35,606 nt of DNA from a virus. Below, in pieces: positions 14,128 to 20,070 of the stretch. Made by a program: the position numbers and the translations under genes. The notes under the pieces were generated by a model. That model worked only from the letters and a program-made list of their open reading frames with translations, had not been told where the DNA came from and did no database searches. Position 1 is the first letter of the stretch. Each line of letters starts with the position of its first letter. The stretch spans positions 1 through 35,606 of IMG/VR virus record IMGVR_UViG_3300012347_000093, one strand, 5' to 3'.

Positions 14128-14613
14128 CTATACAGTAAATTTATTGCCTTTTTTTAGGTTTTCTTTTGCTGTAATAACTCTTAAATTATCATAAGTATGA
14201 AGTCCACATACCAACTTACTATTTAATGGAATTAAATGGTCTACATGATACTTCTCAGTACCGTATTTATTTAACATTGCCGCTACAGAATAAAGGCATA
14301 ATATTTTTTCTAAATCAGCCCACCTTGGTATAGCATTTAATTTTGAAGTTTTATATTTTACTTTTAATGCATTATATTTTTCTTGTTTTTTTGCTTTTGC
14401 AGTTTTAATTGCTTGCTTTGATTTTTCTTTATTTAATTGTCTATATTTAGCAACACTACCTTTAATTTTTTCAGCATTTTTTTCAAAATAAATTTTATCT
14501 AACAACTTTTTACAAGTTTTACATTCTGTAGCAAAACCATCTTTTTTACTTTTATTTTTAGTAAAAGCATCTAGTGGTTTTTCTTGTTGGCATCTATAGC
14601 AATATTTAATCAT
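14128..14613 (-). CDS. HNH homing-type endonuclease
   Basis: HVDHLIPLNSKLVCGLHTYDNLRVITAKENLKKGNK is the HNH motif. N-terminal CYRC...CKTC Zn knuckle. Very AT-rich: 15 G+C in the 60 nt at 14401-14460 by hand count. Confidence 0.8.
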   Translation of the reverse strand: MIKYCYRCQQEKPLDAFTKNKSKKDGFATECKTCKKLLDKIYFEKNAEKIKGSVAKYRQLNKEKSKQAIKTAKAKKQEKYNALKVKYKTSKLNAIPRWADLEKILCLYSVAAMLNKYGTEKYHVDHLIPLNSKLVCGLHTYDNLRVITAKENLKKGNKFTV

Positions 14614-15611
14614 ACACCCCAGATTTTACCTCTAAATTGAATTTCACCAGCTTTCTCATCCCAAACTTGAACTAACTCAGGCATAAGCATATGACCTCTA
14701 TCAAAGGTTAGCATGGCAAAGCCAGACCGCCAGTCTTTAGGATTGTCCTCTGTGTAATCTGAAAATTGGTCACCATCAGGATTAGCAAGCATACCTGTTT
14801 GAACGCCATAACGAGTACCGTTGTAATCTGTATGTGGCTGAACAGCTAATACATGGGTATGACCAGTAACAAAGTGCTTACCACTATTTAATGCGTTAGC
14901 CCTACCAGCACCAAATGAACCCTTCCACTTGTGCTTGATAACTGTTTCGTCATTAATCCAGTAAGACCAACAAGGTTGCCATAGAGGAAAGTGGTCTTTA
15001 AGACAGAATCCCTTTACACCTTCAAACTGTGGAGAATGTGCCGCTAGGAATGTTTCAAATCTGGCATCATGGTTACCTAGAGTCCAGATAAGATTAGACT
15101 TAAATGTAGAAGCCTTTTCTATCTCGTTCATGTGATAGTCGACTGCTTCTAATTCTTCTTTGACTGATGGCTTAGAATCCCATCCAATACGAGGATGTCG
15201 GCTGATAGAAGCACCATCGAAGGCATCGCCATTACATACAATAATCTCAGGCTTGAACTCTTTAATCATTTCGACTAAAGCACGAAAAGCAGTTGTTTCA
15301 TCATCTGGGTAGAAATGGGCATCGGAGAATACTAGGACTCTGCCTTTCTCCATTGTGATACCTCTGCGGACTGAGTGCCTTGTGGCTTCTAGTCTTTCAT
15401 CAAGTTTTGCCTTGATTGCAGCCTTATCAAATGCTACGGTATTGCCTTTAACATTTTTTGTTTCTAGTAGGATTCCTCTTTCTGCTAGTTTATCCCTACG
15501 CTTATAGACAGTTCTTACATTAATACCAAGCGCATTAGCTACTGCTTGCGGAGATGCTAATTTTTGAAACAATTCAATAAATTGTTCTTCAGTACAAGAT
15601 GAAGCTGTCAT
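14610..15611 (-). CDS. HTH domain fused to a calcineurin-like metallophosphoesterase
   Basis: N-terminal SPQAVANALGINVRTVYKRRDKL is an HTH. All four phosphoesterase motifs are present: SDAHF, NGDAFDG, LGNHDARF and TGHTHV. Confidence 0.8.
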   Translation of the reverse strand: MTASSCTEEQFIELFQKLASPQAVANALGINVRTVYKRRDKLAERGILLETKNVKGNTVAFDKAAIKAKLDERLEATRHSVRRGITMEKGRVLVFSDAHFYPDDETTAFRALVEMIKEFKPEIIVCNGDAFDGASISRHPRIGWDSKPSVKEELEAVDYHMNEIEKASTFKSNLIWTLGNHDARFETFLAAHSPQFEGVKGFCLKDHFPLWQPCWSYWINDETVIKHKWKGSFGAGRANALNSGKHFVTGHTHVLAVQPHTDYNGTRYGVQTGMLANPDGDQFSDYTEDNPKDWRSGFAMLTFDRGHMLMPELVQVWDEKAGEIQFRGKIWGV

Positions 15612-15952
15612 TAGAGTTCCTTGGGGTCGTAACCTAGCTGAGTGGCTACTTTGTGAGATAAGGCATTAAAGACTGAATCGTGTTTATCCCAAGACTTACT
15701 ACCTTTTAGATACAGTCTCATATGGATAATTTCATGGGCAGTTGTTTTAGTGATATTCTCAAGATGTCCTATTTTTGCAGAAGAAATCCTTATAGTATTT
15801 GGTTCTGGTTCATATTCGCCATAACAGGTAGGGTCGTTATTAACCTCAAATACTACATTCTTGGATGGGGGTAGATTCCACCGATTGAAGGGCGGAAGTT
15901 GAATCAACATCTCATATACTGCTTGAACAGTTTGTGGAGTGACTAATTTCAT
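15611..15952 (-). CDS. SprT-like Zn metallopeptidase (putative)
   Basis: 113 aa with HExxH (TTAHEIIHM) preceded by YGEYEPEPNTIRIS, the layout of small SprT-like phage proteins. Confidence 0.5.
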   Translation of the reverse strand: MKLVTPQTVQAVYEMLIQLPPFNRWNLPPSKNVVFEVNNDPTCYGEYEPEPNTIRISSAKIGHLENITKTTAHEIIHMRLYLKGSKSWDKHDSVFNALSHKVATQLGYDPKEL

Positions 15953-15984: not shown

Positions 15985-16461
15985 TCAAGACTCAAACATC
16001 TCTTTCTCATGGGTTCTACGCTTAACTAGACCAGCCAAGACCTTACCGCCAGCCTTAGTCCAGACTAAAAACTGTTCAGCAGCACCTTCATAATCACCCC
16101 TATTGACCTTCATTCTAAGGGTAGAATTCTGCAAATTGCCCAATCCTACATTAAATGAGAAGGATACTAAAGCATCAAATTGCCCTTGTGTTAACGGTAC
16201 TTTGACCAATCTAAGGACTCCAGCTTCAAACCTAGCTAAGTCTTTTCTTAGTATCTCATCTATCTCATCGTTGCTTAGAACCCTATCCCAACCTGCAGGT
16301 ATAGGTAATTGTTTTCTATCAGCCAACTTAACTTTAGCATGGTTAGGGTCGATAACATGACCTACTCCTATAGTCCAAAGCAAGGCAGGGCATTGATAAG
16401 GTTTACTTCTAACACCCTCATCTTGCTTAATTTGATTAATACACTTTTGGCTAACTTGCAT
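15985..16461 (-). CDS. endolysin, GH24 (T4/P22-type lysozyme)
   Basis: DEGVRSKPYQCPALLWTIGVGH matches the E-x8-(D/C)-x5-T catalytic triad, with Cys at the Asp20-equivalent position. No N-terminal TM/SAR segment. Confidence 0.85.
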   Translation of the reverse strand: MQVSQKCINQIKQDEGVRSKPYQCPALLWTIGVGHVIDPNHAKVKLADRKQLPIPAGWDRVLSNDEIDEILRKDLARFEAGVLRLVKVPLTQGQFDALVSFSFNVGLGNLQNSTLRMKVNRGDYEGAAEQFLVWTKAGGKVLAGLVKRRTHEKEMFES

Positions 16462-16578: not shown

Positions 16579-17154
16579 TCATTTTTTGCACTTATCAAAA
16601 TGATAACGATACATATTCCCACCTCCACCAACTAACCCACAGTTAGGACAAGTTACTAACTTTCTTTTACCTTTACAGGCTTCGCTTAGTTTCTTTGTAT
16701 AGTCTGGGTTATCAAGTCTTTTTTTAGCACCTTCAACATAAGGTTCTGAATCTCTTTTTGTGCCTTTAGTTTTCCCATACCTAGCTTTTCTTTCCTCTGG
16801 CGTAAGTCTTTGCATAACAGACTTCATATGCCAATCATCTCGTTTTGCTGGGCTTAAGTCACCAGAAGCAAATCCTGTAGCTGTAGTTTTTAGGTTATAT
16901 AACTTATCAATAAAACATTCTAAAAATGCTTCTTCTAATTCTCTTGCTTGTTCTACTGTTGTTGCAGTAGCAATTTGTTTAATTTCAAAGCAATCAGAAC
17001 CATATTTATTCCAAGCCCTTTGCAGTCTAATAGAATGATGCTTATTTTTATTTAGTTGAGTTTTATGTTCTTTTATTCGTCTTTTAATGTCGTTACTACT
17101 ACCAACATAAGCCATGTTGTTATTGACATTGACGATAGCATATAACCCAATCAT
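16579..17154 (-). CDS. GIY-YIG homing endonuclease (free-standing)
   Basis: IGLYAIVN...AYVGSSNDIKRRIKEH...N are the GIY/YIG, Arg, Glu and Asn motifs. C-terminal CPNC...HFDKC Zn finger. Inserted between the holin-like gene and the endolysin. Confidence 0.85.
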   Translation of the reverse strand: MIGLYAIVNVNNNMAYVGSSNDIKRRIKEHKTQLNKNKHHSIRLQRAWNKYGSDCFEIKQIATATTVEQARELEEAFLECFIDKLYNLKTTATGFASGDLSPAKRDDWHMKSVMQRLTPEERKARYGKTKGTKRDSEPYVEGAKKRLDNPDYTKKLSEACKGKRKLVTCPNCGLVGGGGNMYRYHFDKCKK

Positions 17155-17654
17155 TTTTTATTCCATCCTCTTGAACCGAACCAGTAACCAATACAAGCAC
17201 CTAACATAGCCATCTCATCAGAACTAAAGATAATATCTGTTGCTTTAATAAGGTCATCAACATTATTAATCAACTCATCGTGCATAAACATATAAGTCAT
17301 AATGCCAATATTGATTATAAATAGTTCTGCTACAAAAAGGTATGTGATTACAGGTCTAACTGTAGCCACAAAAGTAGAAGCCCAAGGAGAAGCCTTTTCA
17401 AGAACTTTAGCATCATGGGCATAGGCAGCTTTAGTCATATCTGCTTCAGTCTGCATTTCAATCTGGTCAGTCCTGATTTCCTCAATTTTAGCTTGGGCTA
17501 AAAAACCCCTTTCCATCATCTGCAATTCTCTTTCGGTTTGCATCTTAGCCAATTCTAGTTCATGGGATTTATCAGCTTTATCTTGAAAGAAATCCAATAA
17601 TCTAGGCAAACCAGAAACTAAAATACCGCCTAATGTTGAAATCAATGAAAACAT
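17151..17654 (-). CDS. holin-like membrane protein (resembles the GTA-type 3-TM holin family)
   Basis: Hydrophobic N-terminus MFSLISTLGGILVSGL, a coiled middle region, and two C-terminal TM segments (VITYLFVAELFIINIGIMTYMFM, AMLGACIGYWFG). One homing-endonuclease gene separates it from the endolysin. Confidence 0.4.
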   Translation of the reverse strand: MFSLISTLGGILVSGLPRLLDFFQDKADKSHELELAKMQTERELQMMERGFLAQAKIEEIRTDQIEMQTEADMTKAAYAHDAKVLEKASPWASTFVATVRPVITYLFVAELFIINIGIMTYMFMHDELINNVDDLIKATDIIFSSDEMAMLGACIGYWFGSRGWNKK

Positions 17655-17656
17655 AC

Positions 17657-18052
17657 TTACTCCTTATTAGCCAATGGATTATCTAAAGCCCTACGAATCT
17701 TGTTGTCGGTTTCCTTACGCATCTCTCGTAAGTCTTTATCGACTTCTCTAGAGAATTGCTTGTTATCTCTTTCTACCTGTTCAACAATCTTTTCAAGTCT
17801 ACGAACATCGTTTTTAATGTCGTTCTTAATATCTCTGGTGTAGTCATTAATCTTGGCTGTGTTTTCTTCTACAACAGATACCCTCTTGTCGTATTCCGAC
17901 ATATCAGGAATAGACTCCACTTTTGACCATGCTTCAAAAGCTACCCATAAGACACCCACAAGCGTAGATAAGACAGTTGCGCCAATACCAATAGCACCTA
18001 TTGTCATCTTCTTACCAAGTATCTCTACTTCTTTATCTTCCATATTGTCCAT
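17657..18052 (-). CDS. N-terminal TM plus coiled-coil protein (i-spanin-like architecture)
   Basis: TM segment IGAIGIGATVLSTLVGVLWVAF, then about 85 aa of charged heptad-like sequence (DIKNDIKNDVRRLEKIVEQVERDNKQF). Confidence 0.35.
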   Translation of the reverse strand: MDNMEDKEVEILGKKMTIGAIGIGATVLSTLVGVLWVAFEAWSKVESIPDMSEYDKRVSVVEENTAKINDYTRDIKNDIKNDVRRLEKIVEQVERDNKQFSREVDKDLREMRKETDNKIRRALDNPLANKE

Positions 18053-19439
18053 CTACCATTTCCTCATGCAGTTTGTGTGTGCCTACCATCATTAAATAAA
18101 AATCTCTGTCACTTCGTTTAATCGGCTTGCTTATCATCTTCTTGCTTAATAAATCCACAATCTGCACTTGTTCAATCTTTACTACTGGAGTTGCGATTGT
18201 TGGGACTTCTATATTTGCTACCTTGACCTGTTGCTTTGGTGCTTGCTTTGCATCTGGTTTTGCTTCCTGTTTTGTTTCTGCTTTGACAGCTTCTTTTGGT
18301 TTTTCTGTCGGTACAGGCTGTAACTGTTGCGTAGAAACAACACTTATCTGACTAGTTATCTGACTAGGCTTTGTAATTATTTCGTTTACCGTAGCATCTG
18401 CAACTATAGGTGTTTCTACTGATATTGCACCCGTAGTTGTTACTTGTAGTGAAGGCACAGGCTTGCTAGGAGTCACAATATTAGCTAAAGAATAGGCTTC
18501 AGCATAATTAGGGCATTGTCTATCATATAGTCCATTAAGGGCGCATTGCTGGGCATAATAGGCATCCTGATAGCCACTACATTGATTGCTATATAACTGA
18601 GAAATATTGCATTGCTGAGTTAAATAAGCCTGTTCGTATCCTACGCACCTAGAGTTATACAGAGGATTTAAGCTACATTGCTGATTAAAGTAGGCTTGTT
18701 CGTATCCTTGACAGGAAGGGCTATACAAAGCGTTTAAGCTACATTGCTGGCTTAGGTATGCCTGTTCATATCCAACGCATTGTGGGCTGTATAGAGGGCT
18801 TATAGCGCATTGTTGAGAAGTATAGGCTTCTTGGTATCCAGCACAACTAGGGTCGGATAACGGATTAGATAGGCATAAATTGCCTGTTGAAGCTACGCTA
18901 TCAATTACTAGTGTATTAGATGAATACCCTGAACCATGATAAAACTGTTCATATTGCCCTACATCTCCAGTTATTCCTCTGGTGACAGTACGCCAAGGAC
19001 TAATGTTAACCTTCTCGTAGTGCATACCAATATAGCCATCTGGTCTAATTTCTACGCCAAAGGTATTAAGGTTTTGAGGGACTCCATACTCTGAGATGTT
19101 TTCCCATGCGTATCTTTGGTACTGAGGAGTGCCTTCAGTTAGGAATCTGCCTTGCCCATAGTTAACTAAGTCAGTTTGTAGAGGAAGAATGGCAAAGCTA
19201 AATGGAGTACCGTTATTAGTCCTTAAATCAAATCCCTGACAGCACCAATGATTTTGCGGATTAAGAAACCCAACAACACCATTGCTGAACATATAAGACT
19301 CAGTAAATACACGACCATAGAAAGGGAAAGCAAATTGAAGTGGGACTCTAGCGTAGCCATCGTCAGAAATATTGTGTTGTACTACAACTTGTGCTGTCGC
19401 TATATTGCACCATAATGCAATAAGAACTAGCCACCTCAT
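18033..19439 (-). CDS. Sec-exported protein: NIDO-like domain, 22-aa Cys/Tyr/Gln repeats, and a K/P/Q/A/E-rich linker
   Basis: Signal peptide MRWLVLIALWCNIATA|Q. FAFPFYGRVFTESYMFSNGVVGF resembles the nidogen (NIDO) signature. The repeats and linker are described in the findings. Confidence 0.75.
   Translation of the reverse strand: MRWLVLIALWCNIATAQVVVQHNISDDGYARVPLQFAFPFYGRVFTESYMFSNGVVGFLNPQNHWCCQGFDLRTNNGTPFSFAILPLQTDLVNYGQGRFLTEGTPQYQRYAWENISEYGVPQNLNTFGVEIRPDGYIGMHYEKVNISPWRTVTRGITGDVGQYEQFYHGSGYSSNTLVIDSVASTGNLCLSNPLSDPSCAGYQEAYTSQQCAISPLYSPQCVGYEQAYLSQQCSLNALYSPSCQGYEQAYFNQQCSLNPLYNSRCVGYEQAYLTQQCNISQLYSNQCSGYQDAYYAQQCALNGLYDRQCPNYAEAYSLANIVTPSKPVPSLQVTTTGAISVETPIVADATVNEIITKPSQITSQISVVSTQQLQPVPTEKPKEAVKAETKQEAKPDAKQAPKQQVKVANIEVPTIATPVVKIEQVQIVDLLSKKMISKPIKRSDRDFYLMMVGTHKLHEEMVDGQYGR
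18492..18875 (-). repeat. coding tandem repeat, 66-nt period, about 5.4 copies
   Basis: C-x-G-Y-x-x-A-Y-x-x-Q-Q-C-x-x-x-x-L-Y-x-x-x repeated. The marker cattgct/cattgtt recurs at 18544, 18610, 18676, 18742 and 18808, exactly 66 nt apart. Confidence 0.9.
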
Positions 19440-19885
19440 TTTATCTTAGGGCGTTTAGGCATTAAATCAGGATTAGCTAACCAGTAGTCTTTAGCCTGAG
19501 TATTAGCCATACCGTTAATAGGACAAGGGACTCCACCATCCCACATAGCCCACCAGACTCGTGCATCATAGCAAAGCAATGCTACTGCAGGTGCTTTCAT
19601 CTGTAATGCAGATAAATCTCTAGATAATAGGACTACTTCACAATTCTCATCTCTTAAAGTCGTGCCTGTAGAGATACCAAAGATTTGGGTTTGTACTGCA
19701 GCAGATACACCACTACTACACATAATATTGTTAATAGTAGTGATGTTAGGGCTGATAGCAGAAGCTGGTGGTGACTTAACAATAGTTTCAGACTTACTTG
19801 TAGAGTCAGTTACTATAGGTTCAGCATAAGCTACTGTAATAAATACACCTAGAACTAAGCCTAAAATAAAATAAGCGAACTTCAT
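19436..19885 (-). CDS. Sec-exported hypothetical protein (149 aa, 5 mature-region Cys)
   Basis: Signal peptide MKFAYFILGLVLGVFITVAYA|EP. 4-nt overlaps with both neighbours. Confidence 0.65.
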   Translation of the reverse strand: MKFAYFILGLVLGVFITVAYAEPIVTDSTSKSETIVKSPPASAISPNITTINNIMCSSGVSAAVQTQIFGISTGTTLRDENCEVVLLSRDLSALQMKAPAVALLCYDARVWWAMWDGGVPCPINGMANTQAKDYWLANPDLMPKRPKIK

Positions 19886-20070
19886 TTGAAATGACCATTA
19901 CCAGCAAGCCAAGTCAAAAGTGCAAGAATACCAATACCGATAATATAAAATGCCTTCTTTACAACACCTTTGCCGACTGAAATATAGACATTCTGAATAA
20001 CCCTTTCGGTTACTCTCTCGACTAGATGCTCAATCTGCTCATCAGTTAAAGGTAAATTCTTGCCACTCAT
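19882..20070 (-). CDS. tail-anchored small membrane protein
   Basis: 62 aa with a C-terminal TM segment AFYIIGIGILALLTWLAG. Confidence 0.55.
   Translation of the reverse strand: MSGKNLPLTDEQIEHLVERVTERVIQNVYISVGKGVVKKAFYIIGIGILALLTWLAGNGHFK

Follow-up and report, generated by a model that had tools for sequence, protein, structure and literature searches.

The stretch of DNA analyzed here, referred to throughout as the window (35,606 nt, IMG/VR record IMGVR_UViG_3300012347_000093), is a podovirus genome of ~35.6 kb with genes for portal, terminase, primase-helicase, an S74-chaperone tail fiber and an endolysin. It encodes a protein of 468 aa (hereafter the target) that carries a Sec-type signal peptide, a NIDO-like head, a cysteine-rich repeat array, a long linker and a conserved C-terminal motif. 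Judged by the synteny of its gene, the target is probably a periplasmic component of the lysis cassette. From the same gene order we propose, more tentatively, an envelope-spanning, spanin-like role, in which its C-terminal helix would sit on a neighboring inner-membrane protein with a transmembrane helix and a coiled coil (TM-CC), and its head on the cell wall or the outer membrane. The target belongs to a large, phage-specific and uncharacterised protein family.

The gene had been delineated in an earlier, model-made annotation of the window (the original prediction). Its position and translation, which agrees exactly with the 468-aa product, stood, although no strand was given and the gene lies on the minus strand. 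The four-part layout proposed there, i.e., a signal peptide, a domain of ~160 aa, 22-residue units and a K/E/P linker, was also recovered when the protein was divided into its parts, with the linker located at aa 373–402 (Table 1). What had been missed was the context: the target is the middle gene of a conserved module of three genes that is linked to those for holin and endolysin, and a member of a larger family that is defined by the N-terminal domain (N-domain) together with a C-terminal H-x-E-M-V-D-x-Q-Y motif. An AlphaFold2 (AF2) model, built from an alignment of 40 sequences, showed a beta-sandwich at aa 19–182 (predicted local distance difference test, pLDDT, ~90), one 12-residue helix per repeat unit (pLDDT > 90), disorder at aa 323–432, and a C-terminal helix at aa 442–467 with a pLDDT of ~65–69. 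No match was found for the target in Pfam, PHROGs or NCBIfam, nor in a sequence-profile search of the PDB. Foldseek with the full model returned nothing at E < 0.001 against the PDB and only uncharacterised phage proteins as matches against BFVD, the few structural-protein entries in both lists having E ≥ 0.3.

Signal peptides were compared across 117 full-length homologues with 58 different N-terminal sequences. A K or R occurs within the first five residues in 115 of the 117 and a hydrophobic core in all of them, followed by a cleavage site with A/S at position –3, A/T/S at –1 and, in 115 homologues, Q at +1. The target itself has the features of a type I signal peptide (Sec/signal peptidase I), with MRWLVLIALWCNIATA followed by Q. 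Moreover, the Cys count of the mature protein is even in 117/117 homologues, which is what an oxidizing compartment predicts. The Sec export claimed in the original prediction is thus supported by a pattern that is kept across 58 distinct N-termini and by the even Cys count, and the disulfides of the target would accordingly be expected to form in the periplasm. We also considered a lipoprotein signal and rejected it: the Cys of the signal peptide is absent in several homologues (e.g., P0029, P0047, P0091) and is therefore unconserved, and the –1 residue of the lipobox test is often W, T or F.

The two partners of the target are sp149 (upstream) and TM-CC (downstream), and their association was followed in 80 viral loci from IMG/VR, to which the further lineages L088 and L090 and several named phages were added, giving about 90 related loci. 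The trio sp149–target–TM-CC was present in essentially all 80 loci, the most distant included, as well as in L088 and L090, and the C-terminal NPL motif of TM-CC is invariant in the alignment. In the window, the stop codon of sp149 overlaps the start of the target (ATGA, 4 nt), while the start of TM-CC overlaps the end of the target by 20 nt, with a GAGGA ribosome-binding site placed inside the H-E-E-M codons of the target; these overlaps suggest that the trio is translationally coupled. No promoter or terminator signal interrupting the gene run around the trio was found in the window. The same layout, with unrelated head domains, occurs in the Pelagibacter phages HTVC115P and Mosig, in roseophage CRP-207 and in the freshwater phage MW202481. 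In HTVC115P, gp53 ends in '...HNELVDMQYR' and gp49 in '...ENPLSNMK'.

Homologues of sp149 were found in pelagiphages, in roseophage CRP-207 and in Ralstonia phage RSP15. Its AF2 model consists of a small helical domain, with half of the protein disordered, and neither a fold match nor a sequence match was found in the PDB. Proteins of the TM-CC family range from 131 to 209 aa, the coiled coil being extended through insertions. A possible fourth member of the module is a 62-aa protein encoded directly upstream of sp149, and similar small tail-anchored proteins are encoded near the trio in MW202481, Mosig and L090.

The link to lysis genes was evaluated in those loci that had at least 2 kb of sequence downstream of the trio. 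Within 3 kb downstream, a holin-family gene was present in 62 of 70 loci and an endolysin gene in 60 of 70. Across all loci studied, four unrelated types of endolysin (T4-type lysozyme PF00959, M15 peptidase, GH19 and Hydrolase_2) and, next to the trio, at least three kinds of holin (GTA_holin_3TM, phrog_3427 and the hol_L032 type) were encountered beside an unchanged trio; the trio is thus the fixed part of a cassette that is otherwise mosaic. The homologue of the window holin in myovirus Mosig (Mosig_00203) passes the Pfam cut-off for GTA_holin_3TM, and the trio of this phage adjoins a GTA_holin_3TM gene. In L088, a T4-like phage, a holin gene even lies between the target homologue and TM-CC.

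With respect to spanins, the TM-CC sequence has the topology of an inner-membrane spanin (i-spanin) and a coiled coil, and topology and position together make it a putative i-spanin analogue. The connection is favored by weak matches of two of 13 TM-CC members to Rz-like spanin PHROGs and by one sublineage in which the gene of an o-spanin-like lipoprotein directly follows that of TM-CC. Genes of outer-membrane spanins (o-spanins) are sought next to those of i-spanins, and the target gene does overlap that of the candidate i-spanin TM-CC by 20 nt within the lysis cassette. No open reading frame (ORF) with a lipobox was found in any frame of the window, and accordingly neither an embedded nor a separate o-spanin gene. 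A unimolecular spanin of the T1 gp11 type was also considered for the target and rejected, as there is no lipobox and the C-terminus is hydrophilic and without a transmembrane helix. No spanin was found in 13% of the phages of Gram-negative hosts, and it was suggested that other anchors might replace the o-spanin (Kongari et al. 2018, PMC6139136).

Table 1. Coordinates of the target, its parts and neighboring genes in the window
Feature	Coordinates	Strand	Description and basis
Target gene	18033..19439	minus (19439->18033)	ATG start, 468 aa; exported NIDO-like / CX9C-repeat / linker / C-terminal-motif protein
Signal peptide	19392..19439	minus	aa 1–16, MRWLVLIALWCNIATA then Q; pattern kept in homologues; AF2 helix 2–15
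N-terminal beta-sandwich	18876..19391	minus	aa 17–188, divergent NIDO superfamily member, vicinal Cys66-Cys67; AF2 strands, pLDDT ~90; profile links
Repeat array	18492..18875	minus	aa 189–316; putatively six C-x9-C loops and five and a half 12-residue helices in alternation; periodicity, AF2
Five full 22-aa units	18780-18845, 18714-18779, 18648-18713, 18582-18647, 18516-18581	minus	Followed by a partial sixth unit
S/T/V-rich segment	18324..18491	minus	aa 317–372, predicted disordered; AF2 pLDDT < 50
K/E/P/A-rich linker	18234..18323	minus	aa 373–402; AF2 disordered; variable in alignment; TonB-like in composition only
C-terminal region	18036..18233	minus	aa 403–468, helix 442–467; alignment, AF2
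sp149	19436..19885	minus	Upstream partner, 149 aa; signal peptide, conserved disordered stretch, small 4-Cys helical domain; phrog_20531
TM-CC	17657..18052	minus	Downstream partner, 131 aa; N-terminal transmembrane helix, coiled coil, C-terminal NPL; i-spanin-like
62-aa protein	19882..20070	minus	Directly upstream of sp149; C-terminal transmembrane helix (topology by eye); conserved by BLAST in only some loci
Holin-family protein	17151..17654	minus	167 aa; phrog_6637; homologous to Mosig_00203
Endolysin	15985..16461	minus	T4-type lysozyme without signal or SAR (signal-arrest-release) sequence; PF00959 E 7.5e-43; phrog_7

The head is the most conserved part of the target within its family (60–90% identity, many invariant residues). 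Its resemblance to NIDO, noticed in the original prediction, holds through intermediate bacterial proteins, although not through a direct match: Pfam NIDO (PF06119) missed the target at E ≤ 0.1, 40 family members at E ≤ 10, and the isolated N-domain. When the N-domain profile was searched against 1.84 billion representative proteins (50% identity clusters), 1577 clusters were matched at E ≤ 1e-3, among them six giant proteins of 2182–4657 aa (P0304, P0350, P0355, P0370, P0374 and P0384) with 4–7 tandem NIDO-like domains each (E 1e-30 to 1e-41). Three of these giants were scanned whole, and Pfam NIDO was matched in P0350 (2e-45) and P0355 (2.6e-12) and not in P0374 at E ≤ 0.01; Big_3_5, PPC, Laminin_G_3 or CarboxypepD_reg domains are also present in these giants. 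The stretches matched by the phage N-domain profile coincide with the Pfam NIDO stretches, and four of six isolated segments of the giant proteins scored above the NIDO gathering score of 25 bits (27.7–35.5 bits). An alignment of the phage profile with 15 giant-protein segments by hhalign covered 129 columns with 99.4% probability (E 4e-21), a figure that is not independent, as the segments had been selected by their match to that profile. The contig of P0350 (L091), the sole one looked up for a giant, is from a bacterial metagenome-assembled genome (MAG), where the gene is found beside an N_methyl/SBP_bac_10 gene, a neighbor which we take to be typical of Planctomycetes.

Based on these profile links, we assign the head, as a divergent member, to the NIDO superfamily, whose fold is extracytoplasmic and of the adhesion or matrix type. 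The head of the target and the NIDO domains of nidogen, alpha-tectorin, MUC4 and giant bacterial surface proteins are both extracytoplasmic and share the FxFPFYG...SNG..xF and W(E/D)(N/D) motifs, while the phage version has vicinal cysteines and occurs as a single copy at the N-terminus. To our knowledge, no biochemical function has been established for the NIDO domain, so that membership gives no mechanism. A search of GenBank phages with the isolated N-domain gave only noise at E ≤ 5. As a side observation, the six giant proteins indicate that the prokaryotic NIDO-like domain is apparently much commoner than Pfam coverage suggests.

The 22-residue Cys/Tyr/Gln repeat with its 66-nt period, described in the original prediction, is real: the period was seen by two repeat finders, one of them TRF, and 59 of 110 residues are identical at a lag of 22, whereas 10,000 shuffles averaged 10 and never exceeded 24. 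The units share 50–68% of their amino acids and 48–71% of their nucleotides, hence the repeat is old and has been maintained by selection rather than being recently duplicated. The array contains 12 Cys between positions 189 and 309, as had been counted when a disulfide ladder was suggested; a better reading of their regular spacing is a series of six C-x9-C loops with a helix after each. Since the array starts and ends with C-x9-C (C189-x9-C199 and C299-x9-C309), this is the most economical scheme for the modelled protein, in which six C-x9-C disulfide loops would alternate with helices. The C-x11-C alternative was discarded, as it would leave the first and the last Cys of the array unpaired and would span a 12-residue helix. 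The repeat also lies outside described families, as had been suspected, with no match in Pfam, PHROGs, NCBIfam or the PDB apart from a weak one to Pfam CHCH (CX9C; E 0.77 in 2/40 members).

What had been overlooked is that the array is an optional insert of variable length within a larger family: the number of loops ranges from 2 to 14 in close relatives (the 117 full-length homologues) and, across the wider family, from 0 to 21 in its 150 best representatives. The 22-residue helix-plus-disulfide-loop repeat is thus an undescribed one with a freely changing copy number.

Conservation in the family alignment extends to two further parts of the target. Within the S/T/V-rich, disordered segment, the motif P..VQVSTTGxxSVETPxVADxxVNExIT (~aa 327–357, window 18369-18461), with invariant D348 and N352, is probably a binding segment. 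The C-terminal helix ends in a near-invariant H-E-E-M-V-D-G-Q-Y-G-R in which H458 and Q465 are invariant, and this C-terminal motif was found in most of the 150 distant representatives and in gp53 of Pelagibacter phage HTVC115P. A conserved stretch, 'PIVTDSTS...KSPPPSAISP', was also observed in sp149 (aa 24–49, window 19739-19816, minus strand), where it is disordered in the AF2 model. According to the models, the conserved disordered stretches of the target (18369-18461) and of sp149 are candidates for binding each other or a partner by strand addition.

Altogether, 1938 homologous clusters (90% identity) were recovered from 5.8 billion proteins, all of them metagenomic and unnamed. Members of the wider family share a signal peptide, the NIDO-like head (sometimes behind an extra domain of ~200 aa), a low-complexity linker and a '...SDRLHQEMVDxQY[RK]' C-terminus. 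When 185,579 species genomes of bacteria and archaea were scanned twice, once with the repeat array, no relative was found except for a single contig (L087, CAYQCU010000037.1) of 3.4 kb in an 'uncultured Bifidobacterium sp.' MAG. Apart from a gene like that of sp149, this contig encodes only a family member of 810 aa, and it is probably phage DNA mis-binned into the MAG of a Gram-positive bacterium. No match to the target was found by tblastn and megablast among 50,697 GenBank phages, and literature searches on spanins and pelagiphages, on spanin-less phages, and on NIDO and phages turned up nothing on the family. By portal sequence, the closest cultured relative of the window is Methylophilales phage Venkman (59%), with freshwater Manatee Spring phages at 61–64%. 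Venkman lacks the target gene, as it was included in the GenBank collection that gave no match.

Of the four roles offered for the target in the original prediction (envelope-remodelling factor, superinfection-exclusion factor, periplasmic lysis factor or surface adhesin), the periplasmic lysis factor fits best and the surface adhesin least. In the mechanism that we propose, the target would be exported by Sec into the periplasm late in infection and oxidized there, its working parts being a NIDO-type adhesion head, a helical stalk with C-x9-C loops, a long flexible linker and the C-terminal H-x-E-M-V-D-x-Q-Y helix. This helix would dock on the periplasmic end of TM-CC, acting as the i-spanin analogue, while the head would bind a conserved component of the wall or the outer membrane. 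The pair would thereby span the envelope like a two-component spanin, with an anchor based on protein adhesion in place of the lipid anchor of the o-spanin, and it would act at the last step of lysis, after the removal of the wall by the endolysin. Observed are the domain layout, the export signals, the module with its linkage to lysis genes and the lack of a lipoprotein o-spanin; the periplasmic disulfides, the physical complex, a ligand for the head and a role in disrupting the outer membrane are what we infer from them. The high conservation of the head, as opposed to the variable tail fibers next door, points to a generic envelope ligand rather than a phage receptor.

Several points weigh against this proposal. 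The suggested functional link rests on synteny. No holin or endolysin was recognized beside the cluster of HTVC115P, and in podoviruses the trio lies directly downstream of tail-fiber genes. TM-CC is not recognized as a member of a known i-spanin family: in a PHROG comparison of 13 members, only two had Rz-like spanin matches, which were weak (E 9e-4 and 7e-3) and lay amid coiled-coil noise. The target has no membrane anchor, so that membrane fusion of the Rz/Rz1 type is not obviously possible, and a stalk of 0–21 loops is odd for a device that has to match the width of the periplasm, although the disordered linker of ~110 aa could buffer such differences. Finally, in one sublineage (L070–L075 and L080–L083), a small, Cys/Pro-rich, o-spanin-like lipoprotein is encoded directly after TM-CC; the target is kept there even though TM-CC and the lipoprotein would complete a canonical spanin pair, which argues for an added or a different role.

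The comparison with two-component spanins such as lambda Rz/Rz1 is two-sided. As in Rz/Rz1, the target gene overlaps that of a type-II inner-membrane coiled-coil protein, with which it would be co-translated, within a lysis cassette; its product is predicted from sequence to be periplasmic, with a long, disordered, Pro-containing region and Cys residues, and nothing else encoded in the window is a candidate for the outer-membrane step. Unlike the Rz/Rz1 system, the target has neither a lipobox nor a lipid anchor, is 10–20 times the size of an o-spanin, with a folded head and a stalk, is always accompanied by a third exported protein (sp149), and coexists with an o-spanin-like lipoprotein in one sublineage.

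An alternative, which we regard as unlikely, is that the trio is a lysis-timing or superinfection-sensing module in the manner of the T4 periplasmic antiholin RI, sensing a signal or binding the holin or TM-CC and thereby delaying or triggering lysis. The trio is indeed interleaved with holins and persists beside the o-spanin-like lipoprotein, and sp149 is small, exported, helical and equipped with disulfides, being similar in size to T4 RI, which is reported to have a cleavable signal peptide (PMC8385771). Nevertheless, neither sequence nor fold comparison revealed a resemblance to RI or to another antiholin, a protein of 400–800 aa with an adhesion head and a stalk is far more elaborate than known antiholins, and the neighboring holin family changes while the trio stays, which speaks against a specific holin-binding partner.

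Somewhat less likely still is superinfection exclusion or receptor masking as in T5 Llp or Cor, by which the head would bind the envelope from the periplasm and either block rival phages or spare the progeny from cell debris. An exported protein with an adhesion-type fold would suit such a function, as would the position of the podovirus trio directly downstream of tail-fiber genes and the swapping of heads between host groups (NIDO-like here, unrelated in pelagiphages and MW202481). However, the head is the most conserved part while the adjacent tail fibers are variable or undetectable, the opposite of what a receptor-matched protein would show, and in L081, L088 and Mosig no recognized tail-fiber gene is found among the genes beside the trio while the lysis genes are kept. 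Known masking proteins are, in addition, lipoproteins that are expressed early or from prophages, whereas the target is co-directional with structural and lysis genes, and no promoter or terminator signal was found within this run. T4 RI and T5 Llp/Cor resemble the target as phage-encoded exported envelope proteins of the periplasm or the outer membrane; they differ as small single-domain proteins or lipoproteins with no similarity to it in sequence or fold, and they are found outside any conserved trio with a coiled-coil membrane protein.

A virion or tail-associated adhesin, with an uncleaved hydrophobic N-terminus and a Cys-rich stalk oxidized only after release, would agree with the gene's position at the end of the structural module, with the occurrence of NIDO-like domains in adhesins and with the repeat-number variation that is common in fibers, yet it is very improbable, as the virions of tailed phages assemble in the cytoplasm, the N-terminus varies while keeping the exact signal-peptide pattern (small-x-small, then Q), both neighbors are membrane or exported proteins, a holin is interleaved with the trio in L088, and there was no match to a structural PHROG nor to the PDB at E ≤ 0.001.

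Similarities to two other systems concern parts of the target only. Like TonB and TolA, it has a K/E/P-rich linker, and an extended spacer keeps a globular domain at a distance from an inner-membrane anchor; the relative in MW202481 is in fact auto-annotated as 'tonB'. Identity with TonB was rejected because the signal peptide of the target is cleavable and not a transmembrane anchor, and because it has neither a TonB C-terminal domain nor any hit in Pfam or NCBIfam; the orientation is also reversed, with the head at the N-terminus and the putative anchor contact at the C-terminus. Twin-CX9C (CHCH) proteins share the repeated C-x9-C spacing and an oxidizing compartment. Here too identity was rejected, since the AF2 helices span C-x11-C and the C-x9-C segments are non-helical, with the weak CHCH match limited to the two members mentioned above; the units of the target are tandem 22-mers, unlike the one helix-turn-helix of CHCH proteins.

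Several observations were made on the annotation and surroundings of the module. Two tandem TM-CC paralogues of 209 and 157 aa are encoded on a 70-kb phage contig (L075, 7907-9018). In Roseobacter phage CRP-207 (L093, MZ892987.1, 3292-3873), gp73 is labelled 'putative lysozyme', probably a misannotation, as the protein has the transmembrane-plus-coiled-coil layout, ends in ...ADNPL and is a TM-CC homologue. In MW202481.1 (L084; 4501-4929 and 5844-6251), the sp149 homologue is unannotated, two short antisense coding sequences being annotated instead, and so is the TM-CC ORF, which overlaps the end of the 'transport protein tonB' gene, a label that seems to be based on linker composition.

In the window itself, a 191-aa ORF with a GIY-YIG-like N-terminus (by eye) lies between holin and endolysin (16579-17154, minus strand); it is absent from all 80+ related loci, where the holin abuts the endolysin, which suggests that a homing-endonuclease gene was recently inserted into the lysis cassette. 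The endolysin is followed by genes for a SprT-like zinc protease (HEIIH motif) and a metallophosphoesterase (14610-15952, minus strand), whose position is kept in many relatives (Pfam on L001/L002, tblastn), and the leftward operon ends with a 161-aa ORF that has an HNH-like motif, HVDHLIPL...N, by eye (14128-14613, minus strand). A 33-nt tandem repeat of 3.2 copies (1129-1235, 65% matches) was also observed inside the 3' part of the portal gene.

These results extend the NIDO superfamily to phages and correct the public record in two places, a 'tonB' and a 'putative lysozyme'. The target family is very common, phage-specific, and found in phages whose hosts are among the most abundant aquatic bacteria. 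It is a candidate answer to how phages without a recognizable spanin, approximately one in eight of those with Gram-negative hosts (PMC6139136), open the outer membrane. It is conceivable, if doubtful, that the trio represents an unrecognised, lipoprotein-independent system for breaching the outer membrane, which would then serve a great many uncultured freshwater podophages and, with the heads exchanged, phages of SAR11, roseobacters and related streamlined bacteria.

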